Virus record (IMG/VR): IMGVR_UViG_3300026549_000029
Location: 160,001-224,000 of that record
Length of the DNA stretch: 64,000 nt
Reading direction: 5' to 3' (one strand)
Origin: a virus
Taxonomy: Duplodnaviria; Caudoviricetes
In this document: one piece after another, positions 14,567 through 23,307 of the stretch
Layout: each line of letters starts with the position of its first letter
Position numbering within the stretch: position 1 is the first letter of the stretch
The notes under the pieces: generated by a model
What the model was told of the DNA's origin: nothing
The model's input: only the letters and a program-made list of their open reading frames with translations
Database searches by the model: none
Program-made: the position numbers and the translations under genes

Positions 14567-15610
14567 TTATTCATTTGAAATTTTTATATTATCATAAAGA
14601 AAATCATAGAAACTTTCTCTTTCTATAAATTTATTACTTCCAATCTCAGCATCTTTTCTAATTTCAGCAAAAAAGTCTGGATTATTTGTAATATCTTTAT
14701 AGATATCATCTACAGTTTTATCAAATTCTTTACATACTCTATTGATTGTGTCTATAATAAGATTTATATTAGACTTTATTATTCCATCTTCACCTTTAGA
14801 ATATTTAAAGGCTTGAATATAAAAATACATATATAGTATCATCATTATCATGTGATCATAATACTCTTGATAATTATCAGGATATTTATGAAAACAATTA
14901 AACCAGGGGTCAACAGCTGAATGGACATAATCTTTAAAACAAGTTTCTAGTAAGCTATGTTTACTGGTATCAAACGATCTAGTGAAAGATTTAGGATTAT
15001 AGCTCCATTTATAAGTACATACATCAAACTTTCTTAATTCTGAATTTTGTCCACCTAATTCTGCCATAACTTGACCATTGAAATGCAAATCTTCATTTGT
15101 ATATAGATTTTCTTCAAAATCTATACTAGACTCAATGAGCCAGTATCTATTATAAAATTTACCATGTAACCAAGTTCCACCATCAAAAGTTAAACCATAT
15201 TGACCAATGATTGGATTATAATCCCTGAATGATGTGTATATTAATTTTTGTTCTCCAGTCTCTTCAATCAATTCTTTAATTTTCTTAAATACGTCTGGCT
15301 CAAACATATCATCATCATCGATAAAAGTAATCCATTCTCCAGTAGCTATTTTCCAGCCATCAAATCTGGTATTACTAGGACAGTGAATCTCTCTTGGTTT
15401 AGTTTTACAATATTTTATTTTGAGATTCTCCATATAAGGATAAACCTTATCCATAAAATTATCAGTAGATTGATCATCGCAGATAATTATTTCTACATCA
15501 TCTGTATCTTGAATAACTATAGAGTCTAATAATCGTTCAATAGTATCAGAACAATTGTGTGCTGGTATTAGGACTGATAGCCAATAATCACCTTTATAGT
15601 GTTTATACAT
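14567..15610 (-). CDS. Glycosyltransferase family 2 (paralog of 12964-13992)
   Basis: SVLIPAHN, ICDDQSTD, FIDDDD, HGKFYNR, NED. GGAGAG RBS favours ATG 15610. Late motif GACA-N6-TA at 15652-15663. Confidence 0.9.
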   Translation of the reverse strand: MYKHYKGDYWLSVLIPAHNCSDTIERLLDSIVIQDTDDVEIIICDDQSTDNFMDKVYPYMENLKIKYCKTKPREIHCPSNTRFDGWKIATGEWITFIDDDDMFEPDVFKKIKELIEETGEQKLIYTSFRDYNPIIGQYGLTFDGGTWLHGKFYNRYWLIESSIDFEENLYTNEDLHFNGQVMAELGGQNSELRKFDVCTYKWSYNPKSFTRSFDTSKHSLLETCFKDYVHSAVDPWFNCFHKYPDNYQEYYDHMIMMILYMYFYIQAFKYSKGEDGIIKSNINLIIDTINRVCKEFDKTVDDIYKDITNNPDFFAEIRKDAEIGSNKFIERESFYDFLYDNIKISNE

Positions 15611-15682
15611 TTTTATTCTCTCCATCTTATTATGACAATACCAATTCTGTATAATAAGATGTCAATTCAATAAAAAACTAGA

Positions 15683-15702
15683 GAGGGGAGATAACTCCCC
15701 TC
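15683..15702 (-). terminator. Intrinsic terminator
   Basis: GAGGGGAG-ataa-CTCCCCTC, with an A-run on the left that reads as a U-run on the minus strand. Confidence 0.7.
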
Positions 15703-15738
15703 CCCAATAATTCTAGTTTTATCCAAAATAAGACTAAA

Positions 15739-17112
15739 TCAGGACACAGTAACAGTCTTATCAGTCTTGTTAAGGGTAAGGCTCTTGGTCTCGGTTGCAA
15801 CAGTGATGGAACCATCAGCAAGAGCATCAGAAGTGGTGGCAGCAGTCGGAGTAACAGATTTAGCAGTACCAGAGAACTCTGCAGTGAAGGTCGGCTGAGT
15901 AACAACAGCATTAGCAGTTTCAAATGCAGGAGTAGCACCAAGAACAGTACCAACACCACTGAAGGAAGCATCACCATCATAAGCTGCAGTAGCAGAAGCA
16001 ACACTAGTAGCAACATCCTTTGTTCCAAAGGTCGGAAGAGCACCAGAAATGGTCTGCTTAGTATAAGTGATAGCACCAGCTTCAGTAACAGCATCGGTAT
16101 AGAACTCAGTATCAGTAGATGCAACATAAGCAAGGTTCAGCTGCTCAGTATCGGTAGTATCCATAGCAAAGGATACACCCTTCTTAACAAACTTAGCAGT
16201 TGTATCAGAAGCCTTAGTAACTGCACCATCACTCAGAGTATATGCAGTACCAGCATCGGTAACAGTAGCAACTGCTTCCTTACCAAGAGTAACAGTAGCA
16301 GTGATACTCGGCAGAGTAATGGAACCATCAGGAGTATAGGTAGCAGTCTGACCATCACCAACAGCACCTGCAGAAACAGTAATAGAAGAAGTCTTCTGAT
16401 AGGTAGCAGCTGCAGCAGTACCAGCAGTAAGAGCAACAGTACCAGCCGGAGTAACATCAAGAGCATTCCAAGTCTGAGGAACAGCAACGGTGTTACCACT
16501 AATAGCATACTCACCAGCCTTAGCTACAGTGATATCATCAATAGAATCAGCAGTAGCAACAGTACCAGTAGCAGTATCCTTATGTGCAAGAGCCTTAAGA
16601 TTCAGAGCAGAAGCAGCCTCAAGCTCAGAAACAGTAATACTGTGATCAAGAGCAATACCAGCAACAGTGGTGGTCTTCGGAACATAAGTAGCAGCTGCAG
16701 AAGCAATGGTCAGATAGATATTCTGGTCACCGAGCTCTTCCCATGCAGAGCCACTATAGATATATTCCTTACCATTACCCTTAATAACAACAACATCACC
16801 AGCCTCAGGATCAGTGACAACACGAGCAATAGCCTGAGTATCAGTCTCTTCATTCTGCTTTTCAACAATACCTCTAAAGTGCATAACACCTTCAAGGTCA
16901 GCAATCTGCTCCTCAACCCAAGCCTGGATTGCAGCAGAAGTTACAAGGTTAACACTATCTTCAGTAAAGGTAGTATCAACATTCTTAAGAACAGCATCAC
17001 CAAAAGTAGCAATAATACCACGAAGATCAGCATCTTTCAGCCAATAGATAGAGCCATTGACATTAAGCTTAGCCATTGTCTGATTATGCTCATAAGTAGG
17101 TGTAAAAGCCAT
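15739..17112 (-). CDS. Thr/Ala-rich fibre or decoration structural protein
   Basis: MHFRG...GDVV...EYIY.G..WEELGD, TPAGTV and FSGT motifs; strongly expressed codon bias. Confidence 0.7.
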   Translation of the reverse strand: MAFTPTYEHNQTMAKLNVNGSIYWLKDADLRGIIATFGDAVLKNVDTTFTEDSVNLVTSAAIQAWVEEQIADLEGVMHFRGIVEKQNEETDTQAIARVVTDPEAGDVVVIKGNGKEYIYSGSAWEELGDQNIYLTIASAAATYVPKTTTVAGIALDHSITVSELEAASALNLKALAHKDTATGTVATADSIDDITVAKAGEYAISGNTVAVPQTWNALDVTPAGTVALTAGTAAAATYQKTSSITVSAGAVGDGQTATYTPDGSITLPSITATVTLGKEAVATVTDAGTAYTLSDGAVTKASDTTAKFVKKGVSFAMDTTDTEQLNLAYVASTDTEFYTDAVTEAGAITYTKQTISGALPTFGTKDVATSVASATAAYDGDASFSGVGTVLGATPAFETANAVVTQPTFTAEFSGTAKSVTPTAATTSDALADGSITVATETKSLTLNKTDKTVTVS

Positions 17113-17154
17113 AATATTTATCTCCTTTGTAAGATAGTTGATTTATTAATTTAA

Positions 17155-17895
17155 TTAATTGTTTAAAAATAAGATGGTTTCTTCTGCTGCATTTGTAGTA
17201 ATTTTAAATCGCTGATTAAGTTCTTCAGTTACTATTTTTTGAGAGATGGAACCATCTGTATTTGTGCCAGTACTTTGATACAATTTAGCAATACCAGCAA
17301 GATTCTGATCTGCAAATGGTACATTAGCAATGGCAGATATATAATTTTCTCCATTGTAAATAAAAATAGTGGAGGAAGTTATATCAACATAAATTTTGTA
17401 TTCATATGGAACATATTTAATTCTATGCTCTTCATCTTGGTAAAATTGTCCTTCAAATAAATATCCACGTACTATGATAGCATTTTCCCATTGAACTTTC
17501 TCAATTGGAATTTCAGCATCATCAAGTGTAGTAAAATCAATATTATAGACACCATTAACAGAGCTAATACCTTTTCCAGCCATTGATACGCCAAAAGCTT
17601 CATGAGTGGAAAGAGGAATATCTACTGCCATGTCATTAATAGGAAGTTCTACTCCATTAATAGAAATAGATTCAATTTTACAATAAGAATATTTTTTAAA
17701 TTTACCAGTTTCAGAAGAAATTATTGCAGAATCTTTATTGTATATATAAAGATAACCATCATCTGAGCAAACAGCAAAATATTTGACAGGCATATGGTTA
17801 TCATTTATATTAAACATTTCTTGCTTTGATAATACTAAACGATTATCAATAGCCTCTCTTGTTTTAACTTCAAAACCCTGAACAATTTGTATCAT
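17155..17895 (-). CDS. Fibre-associated structural protein
   Basis: IESISING, AGIAKLY.STG.NTDGSISQK fibre motifs; cluster context. Confidence 0.6.
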   Translation of the reverse strand: MIQIVQGFEVKTREAIDNRLVLSKQEMFNINDNHMPVKYFAVCSDDGYLYIYNKDSAIISSETGKFKKYSYCKIESISINGVELPINDMAVDIPLSTHEAFGVSMAGKGISSVNGVYNIDFTTLDDAEIPIEKVQWENAIIVRGYLFEGQFYQDEEHRIKYVPYEYKIYVDITSSTIFIYNGENYISAIANVPFADQNLAGIAKLYQSTGTNTDGSISQKIVTEELNQRFKITTNAAEETILFLNN

Positions 17896-17913
17896 ATTTA
17901 CACCCCTTCCATA

Positions 17914-20793
17914 TTATCTGTAGTAAAATATAATTCTGAAATTATCAATGGTAAGAGGTTCTTTAGTGTAATAAATTGTATAATCATTATACTCTATAGA
18001 TGCCCATCCACTAAACTGTTCCAAACCAGAAAAGTCTTTAATAGAAATTAAAGGTTCAATAGATTTAGGAGTAGCAAAAACAAAATGTTCATCATTTGCA
18101 GTATAATAATAATTTGTACTTTGATTTAATACCGTAGCTTTATTCTTTTCTTGAGCAATTAATCCAGTTAGATCTGTAGGAATATCATGAGTTACACCAA
18201 AATAAAGTGTAATAGTTTCATTACTTCCTTCAGGAGCTAAAATCTGTCTCATAAGATCAAGAAGTTGAGCATTAGAATTAATAACAGTACCAGCAGGAAC
18301 TCCACCAACATCTACAGTTGTTGTAAATCCTGTTTCATAAGATGTCTTTTTATTAATAAAATCAGCAAGAGAATCATACTCCTCAGGTACTTCACCAATA
18401 AGATCAGTTACAGTTTTTCCATCAGGTAATTCTCCAATTTCATCTTTGACATCTTTAATATAATCTGCAATATTTTCATACTCATCAGGTAATTCACCAA
18501 CAATAGCAGTTACATACTCTGCTAATGAATTATATTCCTCGGGTACTTCACCTACAGAATTTTTAATGTCATCAAGATAATCAATTACAGAATTATACTT
18601 GCTAGGAACTTCACCAATCGTATCTTTGATAAAATCAACTACAGAGTCAGTACCATCAGGTAATTCTCCAATTTTATTGCTAATAGCATCTACATATTCA
18701 GATACAGAGTTATATTCATCAGGAAGATTACCAATAGTATTATTAATAAGGTCAACTACTGAAGTTGTACCATCAGGTAATTCTCCAATAAGATCAGTTA
18801 CAGAACTAACTCCATCAGGAAGATCACCAATCTTATCATTAACATAATCGGTTACAGATTTTCCATCTGGAACTTCACCAATAAGTTCAGTAACAGAATT
18901 TATACCATCTGGAAGATTACCGATAAGATCTGTTACAGATTTTCCATCTGGAACTTCACCAATAAGTTCAGTAACAGAATTTATACCATCTGGAAGATCT
19001 CCAATAAGATCGGTAATAGAATTTACCCCATCAGGTAAATTACCAATAAGATCCGTTACAGATTTTCCATCTGGCAATTCTCCAACTTTATTATCAATAA
19101 GATCAGTTACAGAACTAACTCCATCAGGTAATTCTCCAATAAGATCGGTAATAGAATTTACCCCATCAGGAAGTTCACCAATTTTATCATCAATATAATC
19201 TGCTACAGAATCATACCCATCTGGAAGATCTCCAACAGATTCTTCAATTTTCTTGTCTACATAAGATGCAACAGTTTCTCCATCTGGAAGACCAATAAGT
19301 TCTCTTACAACAGGAGCAACAATTTCAGTTTTATGTTCTTCAATATAGGTTTCTACATAAGTATTTACAAACTTAGTGATATCGATCGGATATACAATAG
19401 AAATATAAGTAGATTCGGTTGTCTCAATAGTAGTTTCATTATCATATGTATGAAGTTTTCTATACTGAGTTTGAACTTCAGGAGCAAATTCAAAGAATTC
19501 TCCATCTATTACATACTGAATTGCAGCACCATAATCAAGTTCACCAGTAGAAGAAATCCAGTCAGATATAATAGTTTCACCACTATAAGATTCAATATAC
19601 TTTATTCTTCTAAGAACACCAATCTTTCCATTATAGCTGGTAATATGATCAGCCACATACATTTCATCTTCAATGAAGAGATTAGGCTTAGCTGCAGTAT
19701 TTTTAGTAGGAACTGCTCTAAGAGTAATTGTCTCTGGAAGAATCAAAGTCTGATTGATATCTCTTATAGAAGAATAAACATCAATTCTAGAGAGTTCAAC
19801 ACTTTTAAATGTTTCTTTATCAGTATATCCAAAGATCTTCATATCAATAGGACCAATTACAGTTTCCTTCAATGTAGGATCTTTACCCATAAAGAAACTA
19901 GTTACTGCTACAGCAGATTTACCCAATGTCTGGGTAAACTCTTCTTCAGTTCCAGGATATCCTCCTTCAACTGCATATTCATATGCAGACTTACCAGGCT
20001 CACCCTGTTTTCCTTCAGGACCCACAGTAAGAGATCCAAGGTAATCATATCCTTTAACTTGTATAGGATCGGTATTGCCAGAGTCATCAATAAAACAACC
20101 ACAGCCACAATTGCAATTAGAATTACCATCCTCTTTTCTAACAAAAAGATATGTATCATCAAGCACAATAGCGACAAGTTTTCCAATAGGAACTTCACAT
20201 CTATCAGTTTCTGCTTCTATAATAGAATGAAATACTTTATAGATTTCTAAAGCTCCAGCTTCTCCAGTATCTCCTTTAGGTCCAATAAGACTAGTAAGCC
20301 ATTCTTCTTCAGTACCATTGAATCCAAGAGCTACAGCACATTCATATGCCGACATACCTTGAGATCCAACTGCAGCATTCCAAGTTATGCCATCTAAGCT
20401 ATATTGGAATACACCAACTTCATTTTCTCTAACTAATGTAATTCTTTGATCTTCATTGGATACAGAGCAAACAATATTTTCTACAACACTAGTAGAAGAT
20501 ATCACATTAATATCAAGAATTTGACTTGGCTGAACATAAATAACTTCTCCAGAATATTCAGAAGAACCATCGATTTGAATGTAAGCAGTGGTGCCAACTG
20601 CTCCAAGAGAAGAATTGAAATTGCATCCAATTTTAGTTACAATACCAATAATTGAAAATCTTTCTCCGTTCTTCTTATAAGTGCAAGAGACAGTATCTTC
20701 ATGTTTAACAGTTACAGTTTTAATTATATCATTATCAAAAGAGAGTGTAAATCTGATCTGTGGGATGATTGTATATGAACTATCTAAAAGCAT
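17914..20793 (-). CDS. Collagen-motif and IGELPDG-repeat structural protein (959 aa)
   Basis: Two G.SAYE.AV..G..GTEEE(W/F) motifs with G-X-Y triplets; more than 20 IGELPDG-type repeats; late motif at 20827-20838. Confidence 0.7.
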   Translation of the reverse strand: MLLDSSYTIIPQIRFTLSFDNDIIKTVTVKHEDTVSCTYKKNGERFSIIGIVTKIGCNFNSSLGAVGTTAYIQIDGSSEYSGEVIYVQPSQILDINVISSTSVVENIVCSVSNEDQRITLVRENEVGVFQYSLDGITWNAAVGSQGMSAYECAVALGFNGTEEEWLTSLIGPKGDTGEAGALEIYKVFHSIIEAETDRCEVPIGKLVAIVLDDTYLFVRKEDGNSNCNCGCGCFIDDSGNTDPIQVKGYDYLGSLTVGPEGKQGEPGKSAYEYAVEGGYPGTEEEFTQTLGKSAVAVTSFFMGKDPTLKETVIGPIDMKIFGYTDKETFKSVELSRIDVYSSIRDINQTLILPETITLRAVPTKNTAAKPNLFIEDEMYVADHITSYNGKIGVLRRIKYIESYSGETIISDWISSTGELDYGAAIQYVIDGEFFEFAPEVQTQYRKLHTYDNETTIETTESTYISIVYPIDITKFVNTYVETYIEEHKTEIVAPVVRELIGLPDGETVASYVDKKIEESVGDLPDGYDSVADYIDDKIGELPDGVNSITDLIGELPDGVSSVTDLIDNKVGELPDGKSVTDLIGNLPDGVNSITDLIGDLPDGINSVTELIGEVPDGKSVTDLIGNLPDGINSVTELIGEVPDGKSVTDYVNDKIGDLPDGVSSVTDLIGELPDGTTSVVDLINNTIGNLPDEYNSVSEYVDAISNKIGELPDGTDSVVDFIKDTIGEVPSKYNSVIDYLDDIKNSVGEVPEEYNSLAEYVTAIVGELPDEYENIADYIKDVKDEIGELPDGKTVTDLIGEVPEEYDSLADFINKKTSYETGFTTTVDVGGVPAGTVINSNAQLLDLMRQILAPEGSNETITLYFGVTHDIPTDLTGLIAQEKNKATVLNQSTNYYYTANDEHFVFATPKSIEPLISIKDFSGLEQFSGWASIEYNDYTIYYTKEPLTIDNFRIIFYYR
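18360..19300 (-). repeat. Tandem 13-21 aa coding repeat (IG(E/D/N)(L/V)P(D/E)G..SV.D)
   Basis: Visible in both translation and DNA. Confidence 0.85.
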
Positions 20794-20840
20794 TTTATAT
20801 ACACCATACCTTTCACTTAGTTTGATTACTATTAAGTTTC

Positions 20841-20893
20841 AATAAAAAATACAGAAGAAACCCAGTAGGGAAGGCTCCTACTGGGTCTTCTGT
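20841..20893 (-). terminator. Intrinsic terminator, minus-strand oriented
   Basis: ACAGAAGA(aa)CCCAGTAGG-7 nt loop-CCTACTGGGTCTTCTGT; the U-tract (AUUUUUUAUU) occurs only on the minus strand. Confidence 0.85.
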
Positions 20894-21105
20894 CAAAAAA
20901 TAACGAAAGGAGGTTTAGTCATGAACAACAAATAACAAGCATACAATAAATCAGAAAGGATAACGACAAGTTATGAAACACAGGAGAAAAGCATGAAACC
21001 CAACACACGCAAAATAACAAAAAGGAGGTATATATGATTGTGGAAATCACATTATTGAAAAATGCATAATTAAAGGAAATGGGCAGTAATTACACATTCT
21101 CATTT
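20841..21105 (-). ncRNA. Candidate small RNA built of antisense RBS + start-codon units
   Basis: AACA-N6-TA promoter at 21116-21105 and terminator at 20893-20841. U/C-rich, with 4-5 CAU...CCUCC/UCCUUU units. No RBS-led ORF on this strand. Confidence 0.6.
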
Positions 21106-21116
21106 ATTTATATGTT
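21105..21116 (-). promoter_or_regulatory. Late-type promoter (exact AACA-N6-TA)
   Basis: AACA TATAAA TA immediately after the stop codon of ORF 21118-22308. Confidence 0.55.
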
Positions 21117-21117
21117 A

Positions 21118-22308
21118 TTACTGTCGATTATTAAGATTTAAAATGCATTTTTTAAGATTATTTAAAAATCCATCATAGAATTTCTTAGATTTCTCATCTA
21201 AAGAATCATACATCAATCCTTTAGGATTTATTCTATCAAGAAGAATGATGTTCTTAATAAAATAATACATAAAACTATGTTCTTCTATATTATCTGGAGA
21301 ATAGTTCATACAATATTTACAAAATGCTAAACATAATTTCATATTAGATTTACTATCTCCAATAATATGTCTATCTAATACTACAGGACAATATTGAATA
21401 TCATTAATATTATTATTATGCTTTAAATATTTAGCATTAAAAGAAAGAAATACTTTTTTAGGTTTTTCTAAATCAAACTTCTTAATTTTTACATGCTTAC
21501 AATACTCAGAAAAATTAGTTAAATTATAAGCCTCATCAATAACACTTTTAATTTTCTCTAATTTCTCAACAGCTTCTTCTTTACCTTCTGCTTTACATCT
21601 AGCAATAGCAGCATCAATTTCCTTTTTTCTTTCTTCATCAAAAGACATTAAAATATTACCAAATTCTTTTGATGTTTCATTCTGAAGTTTCTGAAAATCT
21701 TGATCAAATCCAGCAAGCATAGTATCTAAGTCTATATAAGCATTTTTCTTTTCCCATTCTTTTGCTAATTCTCCAATAAGTAAATTAGCAGCATAATTAA
21801 GTCTGGTTTTATTTCCAAGAAATGCTAATGCTGGTCCATCATCAGAAGATTTTCTAACAATATCAAGTGCTGATTCTTTTAGAAAACTAGGAAGTTCATC
21901 ATAACTAATTTTTTCACCATTAAATTTTTTCTTAATGATATTATTTAAAATATTTATCTCTTCTAAATCAGTAAGTTCAGATTCTACAGTTCTAGGAAGA
22001 ATATTCTTAATTTCATCAAAAGTAAGAGAAACTTCTTCTCCACCAGTGAATCTATTAAAATGTAAATCTGATAATACTTTAGTATTTGTACTAGCAGTAT
22101 CTGCTGTTATATCTCCAGTAATAGGATTATATATACCGGTAGTAGATATAGGAGATTCAGTAGTATTAATATCTAACTCTTTTAAGTCTGCATAACTTGT
22201 ACTTCCATCTTCATTTTCTACTATACCTTTAGCAGATTCTAAAAGATTATTGTAAAGCTCATCTACTTTATTATTGTCTATATTATTCATTTTAAATATC
22301 TTCTCCAC
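21118..22308 (-). CDS. Hypothetical protein (396 aa)
   Basis: Long helical ORF; the true start may be MNNID at ~22290 (GGAG upstream). Confidence 0.75.
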   Translation of the reverse strand: MEKIFKMNNIDNNKVDELYNNLLESAKGIVENEDGSTSYADLKELDINTTESPISTTGIYNPITGDITADTASTNTKVLSDLHFNRFTGGEEVSLTFDEIKNILPRTVESELTDLEEINILNNIIKKKFNGEKISYDELPSFLKESALDIVRKSSDDGPALAFLGNKTRLNYAANLLIGELAKEWEKKNAYIDLDTMLAGFDQDFQKLQNETSKEFGNILMSFDEERKKEIDAAIARCKAEGKEEAVEKLEKIKSVIDEAYNLTNFSEYCKHVKIKKFDLEKPKKVFLSFNAKYLKHNNNINDIQYCPVVLDRHIIGDSKSNMKLCLAFCKYCMNYSPDNIEEHSFMYYFIKNIILLDRINPKGLMYDSLDEKSKKFYDGFLNNLKKCILNLNNRQ

Positions 22309-22507
22309 TATTAATTACTTCATTTTCAGGTTTAGCAATAGGCTTATACGATATACAATTACATCTAGGGCATTTTGCCCAAATTTTATCATAATATTTT
22401 CTAAATGGTTCTCTATCCGAATAAATATTTGTTCTATAAATCATAGCACATGATAAGCAAACAAATCTTTCTTCTATATCATGTTGTTTAAGCCTATCTT
22501 CAGTCAT
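22292..22507 (-). CDS. Small zinc-ribbon protein
   Basis: CLSC...CPRC. Confidence 0.65.
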   Translation of the reverse strand: MTEDRLKQHDIEERFVCLSCAMIYRTNIYSDREPFRKYYDKIWAKCPRCNCISYKPIAKPENEVINSGEDI

Positions 22508-22518
22508 TTTCTTTTACT

Positions 22519-23307
22519 CTAATCTCCCAAAGCCTCAATTTCACTTCCTAATTGTTGTAAATTTAATTTAATTAATGTAAGAATGTCTGCTGCTTCTTTA
22601 CCAAATATAAATGATTCATAATACTTTCTAAAAAACATTCCAGTTGTATCAGTAATAATACTAGCAATATAATTGCCAATATCTATATTAGATCCAGAAT
22701 AGACAGTGCTTAAAATAGTATATAGATTAATATCAAAATTACTAATTTGATCAATTACATATTCAAGATTACAATGAATACCAGCTAAGCTAGGATCTTT
22801 AAATAATTTTTTAGAATAAATATAAGTAGTTTCATTAATTTTATCCATTTCTGATAAATTTAATGCCAAATCAATAGATTTTCTTTCTCTAATTAAATAT
22901 AAAGTATAAAAATTAATTAATGAAGATGTAAAATTAGATACAAATGTATCATATAACCAATATGCAGCAGAGAATATATCTGTATCATCATTTTGAATAA
23001 ATGCAAAATCATAATAATTACAAATAATATTTATAATGTTATTATAAACTCTAGTTCTTGTAGATAGAATTTCATCTGTATTAGATGTAAATCCATCGGT
23101 TAATTCTTTAAAAGTAATTTCAAAAGCATTAACTATATTAGGTCTAGGAAGATCATATAACCTAAATCTGTTATTAATGGAATCCTTAACTATATCTAAA
23201 ATATAGTCATCACTAAACCGAGATAGAATCCCAGCAAGTTGATTATCTATATTTACATTAGTTATAGCAGGATTATATTGGAATGGAACCCCATTAAATT
23301 CTGTCAT
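22519..23307 (-). CDS. Hypothetical protein
   Basis: 262 aa; AAGGAG RBS; late motif at 23338-23349. Confidence 0.75.
   Translation of the reverse strand: MTEFNGVPFQYNPAITNVNIDNQLAGILSRFSDDYILDIVKDSINNRFRLYDLPRPNIVNAFEITFKELTDGFTSNTDEILSTRTRVYNNIINIICNYYDFAFIQNDDTDIFSAAYWLYDTFVSNFTSSLINFYTLYLIRERKSIDLALNLSEMDKINETTYIYSKKLFKDPSLAGIHCNLEYVIDQISNFDINLYTILSTVYSGSNIDIGNYIASIITDTTGMFFRKYYESFIFGKEAADILTLIKLNLQQLGSEIEALGD

Follow-up and report, generated by a model that had tools for sequence, protein, structure and literature searches.

A conserved intergenic locus of an AR9/phiKZ-like phage with a predicted small RNA carrying complements of translation start regions

Why a gap between two minus-strand genes should carry, on its plus strand, a row of complete translation start regions that open almost no reading frame is the question raised by this locus. 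It lies in a window of 64,000 nt (bases 160001 to 224000 of a 287,868-bp IMG/VR phage record; G+C content, 27.7%), between a 396-aa gene, for which no PHROG family was matched, and a gene for a tail-fiber-like protein (Table 1). An initial annotation had proposed that the gap is a self-contained late RNA gene read from the minus strand, in which each start-site unit would cover the Shine-Dalgarno (SD) sequence and AUG of a different mRNA. All motifs that it listed, the promoter and hairpin among them, are present where it had placed them, and the units differ from one another rather than forming a tandem repeat, as it had also held. The ORFs behind the five plus-strand starts have 4, 7, 14, 11, and 20 codons, which agrees with the limit of about 21 codons noted at the outset. 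Two pairs of these mini-ORFs share ATGA overlaps.

Two RNA polymerase (RNAP) beta-like genes of the phage have Rpb2_6 matches above the cutoff (genome positions 133404-134201 and 223244-223789), and a weak match to Rpb1_2 is also found in the genome. The motif ATATTATAATAATGA, located upstream of many genes, fits the AR9 early-promoter consensus, TATATTAT-N6-G (PMC5312081). The presence of two multisubunit polymerases together with an AR9-type early motif places the phage in the AR9/phiKZ-like group. One Rpb2_6 match is carried by a 1944-aa ORF (window positions 63148-68979, minus strand); this length is unusual among RNAP subunits of jumbo phages, and the ORF may be a fusion. Three other features of the genome were noted. 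The 13-nt word CTATGACGCTTAC occurs upstream of 8 genes genome-wide, approximately 15-fold over expectation. Outside the window, a gene start is preceded by a 277-nt intergenic stretch (G000:C1:271471-271728, plus strand) that seems rich in G+C by the standard of this genome and seems to contain stems; it may represent a further structured RNA or what is left of an intron. The fiber-like protein (17914-20793, minus strand) contains many tandem copies of an IGELPDGxxSVTDL-like sequence of ~13 residues in its middle third.

Transcription signals, conservation, and RNA from the gap

Table 1. Features of the gap and its flanking genes, in window coordinates
Feature	Position	Strand	Remarks
Upstream gene, 396 aa	21118..22308	-	Function unknown; synteny anchor for relatives
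P1, AR9-type late promoter motif AACA-TATAAA-TA (AACATATAAATA)	21116-21105	-	Predicted start, A at 21105
Predicted small RNA, ~260 nt	20840..21105	-	Bounded by P1 and terminator
5' hairpin, 15 bp	21058..21101	-	14-nt loop CUGCCCAUUUCCUU at 21073-21086
Plus-strand unit AAAGGA-1-ATG	21072-21081	+	Sequence
Plus-strand unit AAAGGAGG-5-ATG	21021-21036	+	Sequence
Anti-start-site unit CAU-AUAUA-CCUCCUUU	21021..21036	-	Complement of AAAGGAGG-5-ATG
Plus-strand unit AGGAG-6-ATG	20982-20995	+	Sequence
Anti-start-site unit CAU-GCUUUU-CUCCU	20982..20995	-	Sequence
Plus-strand unit GAAAGGA-12-ATG	20954-20975	+	Sequence
Anti-start-site unit CAU-12 nt-UCCUUUC	20954..20975	-	Sequence
Plus-strand unit AAAGGAGG-7-ATG	20906-20923	+	Sequence
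3' box UGUUCAUG-ACUAAA-CCUCCUUUCG	20904..20927	-	Sole unit keeping its position across relatives
Intrinsic terminator	20840..20893	-	Stem 20893-20851, core CCCAGUAGG/CCUACUGGG, then UAUUUUUUAUU
P2, AACT-TAATAG-TA, probable variant late promoter of fiber gene	20827..20838	-	Conservation
Downstream tail-fiber-like gene, 959 aa	17914..20793	-	PHROG tail and tail-fiber families

P1 has the form of the AR9 late consensus, AACA-N6-TA/G, the last base of which is the transcription start (PMC5312081). Because AACA-N6-TW carries little information in this genome, with only mild enrichment in intergenic DNA (1.0 versus 0.68 per kb per strand genome-wide), the identification of P1 relies on its conservation: AACA-N6-TA is found in all 12 nonredundant relatives, 1 to 4 nt before the 5' hairpin and with a spacing to the stop codon that varies. 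At the other end of the gap, the terminator stem has 12 pairs, 6 of them G-C, and the hairpin is trailed by a T-tract on the minus strand alone, the plus strand showing an A-tract instead. A U-rich tail also follows the terminator in the relatives and is weaker (UUUUGCUG) in the two most distant of them. The early-promoter core TATTATAA was found on neither strand between window positions 15148 and 23040, and sigma-70-like sites are at the level of shuffled sequence. No terminator was found between the 396-aa gene and P1, and the sequence of the small RNA is therefore also the 3' end of the upstream operon.

The 396-aa protein, for which 86 homologues were found, served as the anchor for gathering syntenic loci from IMG/VR, JGI, ENA, NCBI, and Logan assemblies. 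Twelve nonredundant loci, with anchor proteins 38 to 95% identical, make up the set of relatives. Gap length varies from 245 to 365 nt among them, and all 12 share one layout, comprising AACA-N6-TA past the stop codon, the 5' hairpin, a U/C-rich body, the terminator, AACT-N6-TA, and the fiber gene, whose synteny is kept throughout. The body of the RNA is fast-changing and mosaic: its middle equals that of locus L015 (anchor identity, 81%) and differs from that of L014 (95%). Conservation of promoter and terminator around variable cassettes in related phages is the pattern that the initial annotation had named as favorable to its proposal. In the distant relatives L004 to L006 (anchor identity, ~30%), small coding genes take the place of the RNA; in L004 and L006 these are followed by a terminator and a canonical promoter before the fiber-like gene. 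INPHARED phages yielded no relative of the locus at either the DNA or the protein level, and Rfam 15 gave no match in 20794-21117 at an E value of <=10.

P2 is likewise conserved, with AACT-N6-TA and a highly conserved 34-nt leader in 12 of 12 relatives. Its full 18-nt motif occurs once in the genome, so that P2 is a putative promoter. The canonical AACA-TTAGTT-TA found at the same place in L004 and L006 supports P2 as a variant promoter. Across the 12 relatives, the ~46 nt before the fiber gene (20794-20839, minus strand; AACT-N6-TA and then AAUCAAACUAAGUGAAAGGUAUGG...) are better conserved than the neighboring coding sequence. The SD-like GAAAGG of the fiber gene is placed an unusual ~15 nt before the AUG.

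The 5' hairpin carries UUUCCUU in its loop, and the loop core AUUUCC occurs in 10 of the 12 relatives. Its consensus stem, obtained with RNAalifold from ten 5' regions, has 10 pairs, 7 of which show compensatory changes. Of 100 pair cells, 89 hold standard pairs when read as the minus strand and 74 when read as the plus strand. The minus strand has 15 G.U cells and no A.C cells, an asymmetry expected if that strand is the RNA. The small RNA as a whole (U, 47%; C, 18%; A, 20%; G, 15%) is predicted to fold more stably than shuffled sequences (z = -3.3), and behind the hairpin its body is weakly structured and U/C-rich. The claim of a self-contained minus-strand RNA gene has thus held up, given the retained promoter and terminator, the covariation of the hairpin, the G.U asymmetry, and RNA contigs located inside the predicted transcript. 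That the RNA gene exists, that it is read from the minus strand, and that it is conserved all have good support and are very probably correct. Expression late in infection is suggested by the promoter motif.

Stretches of the locus occur in bovine and sheep gut runs, and contigs from four metatranscriptome runs, belonging to four studies, were aligned to window positions 19800-22400. In run X14, a 127-nt contig over 20918-21024 has a depth of 332, with 4.9 for a contig of the fiber gene and 4.6 for one of the 396-aa gene, contig depth being unsuited to ranking. This contig ends at 21024 in Illumina adapter sequence, the orientation of which would suit a minus-strand RNA if the library were dUTP-stranded; no strand was deduced from it. 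In X19, a single 196-nt contig, at 20892-21087 (depth, 10; 0 mismatches), provides the only true cover of these 2.6 kb. Both contigs, from two cattle gut studies, lie inside the predicted RNA. Contigs of X10 cover the flanking genes and none lies over 20844-21104, a hole in contig cover that proves nothing, and in X20 cover is limited to part of the fiber gene, with mismatches. Such contigs give neither strand, ends, nor true levels. They support the presence of an abundant RNA from the gap in gut samples and, being mute on strand, back an abundant discrete RNA and not its orientation.

Complements of start regions and the search for targets

Between the hairpin and the promoter, 211 nt of the plus strand hold four clear SD-ATG units, against 0.40 ± 0.60 expected from 5000 dinucleotide-preserving shuffles (P = 2e-4), and 12 six-base SD-core matches, against 0.68 expected. 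No 200-nt stretch elsewhere in the 287,868-bp genome, on either strand, is as rich in SD-ATG units. On the minus strand, CAU lies 3 to 12 nt 5' of 15 of the 18 anti-SD boxes found in seven lineage representatives. The expected number is 2.2 ± 1.4, and none of 5000 permutations reached 15 when the boxes were fixed and the remaining body was permuted, in lineages that are not fully independent. The enrichment of SD and ATG elements that had been noticed in the gap was therefore borne out against shuffles, as was the linkage of CAU to the boxes across lineages. In the predicted folds of the 12 relatives, the mean unpaired probability is 0.74 for the boxes versus 0.46 for the rest of the RNA. The plus-strand mini-ORFs of most relatives have 4 to 17 codons, and neither their sequence nor their length is conserved, even among close relatives.

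The units differ in how they are retained. The unit at 21021..21036 is kept in L014 and L015, with differences in the spacer alone. In the unit at 20982..20995, CAU is replaced by CGU in these two close relatives and the box itself stays, which indicates that the AUG complement of this unit is not fixed. The unit at 20954..20975 falls in the mosaic middle, which the window has in common with L015 and not with L014. For the 3' box, 8 of the 12 relatives have CCUCCUUUC directly 5' of the terminator, with CAU located 7 to 9 nt 5' of it in 7 of these 8; the exception is L017, in which the 3' box reads CACCUCCUUUC and CAU is missing. The complement of the 3' box has no second match in the phage genome at <=5 mismatches.

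Targets within the phage were sought among 299 start regions, with gene starts and promoter classes taken from simple ORF and motif rules. The longest stretches that the five units share with these regions are 12, 11, 10, 16, and 11 nt, which is the generic level; when real start regions were compared with each other as a control, the mode was 11 nt and 11% reached at least 16 nt. The best duplex energies of the units lie at the 7th, 40th, 76th, 31st, and 95th percentiles of controls in which real start regions served as pseudo-units. Exact unit matches to phage start regions likewise gave nothing beyond the generic when set against real start-region controls. In the sister genome G001, that genome's own units match neither orthologue of the two best candidates. 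For the loop, which is the best-conserved part of the RNA, no complement was found in the phage genome, and the leader of the fiber gene, as a target in cis, ranks 68 of 299 for pairing.

The assignment of one phage mRNA to each cassette, which was central to the initial annotation, is unsupported by these searches, as all matches fall within the start-region controls. Complementarity beyond the generic SD is absent for phage genes, a result that the annotation itself had named as speaking against it. Its suggestion that phage early genes are the targets was not sustained either, since genes with early-type and late-type motifs did not differ (P = 0.94). With respect to the host, a search by way of the lysin gene found no relative in the genome contigs searched. 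An exact 22-nt search with one unit gave 0 matches in 185,579 species genomes and would miss imperfect pairing or an unsampled host.

The explanation that we favor, and consider probable by a modest measure, is a trans-acting small RNA directed against translation start sites. The RNA, running from 21105 to ~20840, is probably made late by the phage nonvirion RNA polymerase from AACA-N6-TA and ends at the intrinsic terminator. The conserved 5' hairpin shows a U/C-rich loop, and in the weakly structured body behind it several segments are predicted to be exposed, each mirroring a complete start region: CAU, 3 to 12 nt, and then CCUCC or UCCUU. Acting in trans, these segments would base-pair around the SD sequence and start codon of mRNAs, in competition with the 30S subunit and in a mode likened to that of the multisite CU-rich sRNAs of Firmicutes. 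Because the complementarity to the phage is generic, the RNA would act either as a broad brake on SD-led translation or on host mRNAs. The blocking of translation, taken by itself, appears about evenly balanced between true and false. Phage late mRNAs also use GGAGG, and it counts against the favored explanation that a generic SD blocker would also strike the phage's own late mRNAs.

Known systems and alternative explanations

The initial annotation had stated that no phage system of this design is described. This statement calls for moderation, as a short CCUCC-bearing RNA is headed by a late start in AR9 and a multisite CU-rich RNA is known in LhrC. In AR9, a very strong late start that heads a short anti-SD RNA has already been published. 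The site, 75478(-), has an AACA promoter and is classed as "antisense g090," with a step height of 3757, unsurpassed among the rows of Table S3 examined (PMC5312081). The RNA is not presented there as regulatory. It begins with AUAAUGUCCUCCUG, after which come a hairpin and a tail rich in T (KU878088, 75400-75478; L027); CCUCC occupies positions +9 to +13, and the hairpin is terminator-like. Most of it lies in the g090-g091 gap and is not antisense to coding sequence.

The likeness of the AR9 RNA to the small RNA studied here is one of layout, with no sequence similarity seen: it is a short ORF-less RNA with an AACA-N6-TA late promoter and CCUCC near its 5' end, and the two-RNAP phage group is common to both. 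The AR9 RNA differs in being short, with one anti-SD motif and no CAU partner, and in its genomic place beside an nvRNAP subunit gene. Two further CU-rich units, both ORF-less and running from an AACA motif to a terminator, were observed outside the window. One, at G000:C1:26243-26424 (plus strand; L028), runs from AACA-N6-TA to a terminator whose stem, CAGUAGG/CCUACUG, is similar to that of the small RNA described here. This unit is rich in U, contains CUCCU boxes, and shows 76% identity over 289 nt in G001. The other, of ~120 nt at G000:C1:77590-77709 (plus strand; L029), has AACAGTTATATA, a 5' hairpin, and CAU...UCUCC immediately before a terminator; its identity in G001 is 85% over 182 nt.

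LhrC of Listeria monocytogenes has three redundant CU-rich sites, placed in a stem-loop, a single-stranded stretch, and the terminator, which bind the SD region and block translation (PMC4132741). LhrC1-5 resemble the small RNA in carrying several redundant CU-rich motifs per RNA in a similar placement. LhrC, RoxS/RsaE, and RNAIII differ from it in that they are host encoded, ~100 nt long, and equipped with UCCC motifs rather than mirrors of CCUCC and CAU, whereas the RNA described here is phage encoded with a promoter for a phage polymerase. Like the anti-SD sRNAs of Firmicutes, it has C/U-rich motifs in loops and single strands of its predicted fold; with respect to the pairing of those sRNAs with the SD of defined mRNAs, its complementarity to phage starts is generic. 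On this comparison, the small RNA would resemble the CU-rich anti-SD sRNAs in mode but is not a member of the family, as there is no Rfam match.

Among phages, the c4 antisense RNA of P1 and P7 has loops that pair around a ribosome-binding site and block translation (PMC12197685). c4 acts on one defined target, ant, within the operon that encodes it, and its phages are temperate and enterobacterial, whereas the small RNA has no Rfam match and no defined target. The RegB endoribonuclease of T4 inactivates mRNAs through the GGAG of the SD sequence; it is a protein made early that acts on early mRNAs. In contrast, a late RNA would act here by pairing and not as a protein nuclease.

The mutual differences among the units, the mosaic middle that the window shares with L015 and not L014, and the presence of CAU at canonical spacing beside 15 of 18 boxes, which a purely generic SD blocker would not need, all suit a multiguide antisense RNA in which every unit complements the start of one mRNA, with host or defence genes as targets and cassettes swapped with hosts. 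The generic level of matching to phage start regions, the lack of covariation in G001, and the retention of a box whose CAU has become CGU in close relatives make this unlikely. We regard as distinctly unlikely the proposal that the RNA is a decoy for a protein or the ribosome, be it a multicopy mimic of the 16S 3' tail (CCUCCUUUC) soaking up a factor or nuclease or a pyrimidine-tract bait for a protein. It leaves the linked CAU unexplained, and the conserved loop AUUUCC differs from the 16S sequence, although the lack of a specific RNA target in the phage genome, the high depth of the RNA contigs, and the 3' box, as CCUCCUUUC in 8 of 12 relatives and CACCUCCUUUC in L017, all fit a decoy. CCUCCUUUC matches the Bacillus-type 16S 3' end.

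A role in cis alone, in which the locus would finish the transcript of the upstream operon, form a terminated leader insulating or attenuating transcription of the fiber gene, or do both, is highly improbable. A spacer or attenuator needs neither exposed anti-SD and CAU units nor a covarying hairpin with a conserved loop, pairing with the fiber leader is unremarkable (68 of 299), and the gap contigs are separate from those of the flanking genes and far deeper in X14. L004 and L006, moreover, manage with a terminator and promoter and no such RNA. Synteny with the fiber gene in all relatives and the missing terminator between the 396-aa gene and P1 are what such a role has in its favor, together with the departure of P2 from AACA and the uniqueness of its full motif in the genome, which suggest that the fiber gene might depend on read-through. 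A cis role in addition to a trans role is possible, because no terminator parts the upstream gene from P1. A product of the plus strand, acting as a ribosome sponge, as a sponge for a GGA-motif protein, or through micropeptides made from real ribosome-binding sites, would suit units that are complete, strong start regions on that strand and the two mini-ORF pairs overlapping by ATGA, and the contigs cannot give the strand. Such a product is nonetheless very improbable, as the TATTATAA core is missing from 15148-23040, sigma-70-like sites do not exceed the shuffle level, no plus-strand T-tract follows the hairpin, the 15 G.U cells of the 5' hairpin turn into A.C mismatches, and the peptides vary in sequence and length even between close relatives.

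Two specific candidates were rejected. For a plus-strand GGA sponge of the CsrB/RsmZ type, the promoter, T-tract, and G.U asymmetry all favor the other strand. The neighboring fiber gene and the A-rich plus strand of the gap had prompted a comparison with a DGR template repeat; the best 50-nt windows match 73 to 74% of non-A positions on either strand, which was taken as background.

Significance of a predicted start-site-mirroring RNA in jumbo phages

To our knowledge, hardly any regulatory RNAs have been described from lytic jumbo phages. According to a 2026 review, phiKZ expresses noncoding RNAs, the role of which is unknown (PMC13282480). The locus described here, from a clade of cattle gut jumbo phages, provides a conserved RNA that is present in RNA samples and has a testable design of exposed start-site mirrors. 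It has a likely counterpart in the cultivable Bacillus jumbo phage AR9, for which a dRNA-seq signal is published, and knockout, toeprinting, and ribosome profiling are therefore feasible.

Should the RNA prove to block translation, it would stand as the RNA equivalent of protein devices such as T4 RegB and could serve as a natural template for multisite translation silencers. In a wider and more speculative proposal, which we consider doubtful, AR9-like jumbo phages would share abundant late RNAs with multiple copies of the mRNA-docking sequence of the ribosome, enlarged at this locus to mirrors of entire start sites, which compete for start sites or act as decoys for attackers of the 16S tail and so reprogram translation globally. 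If true, global reprogramming of late translation by ribosome-mimic RNAs would be an undescribed layer of phage control.
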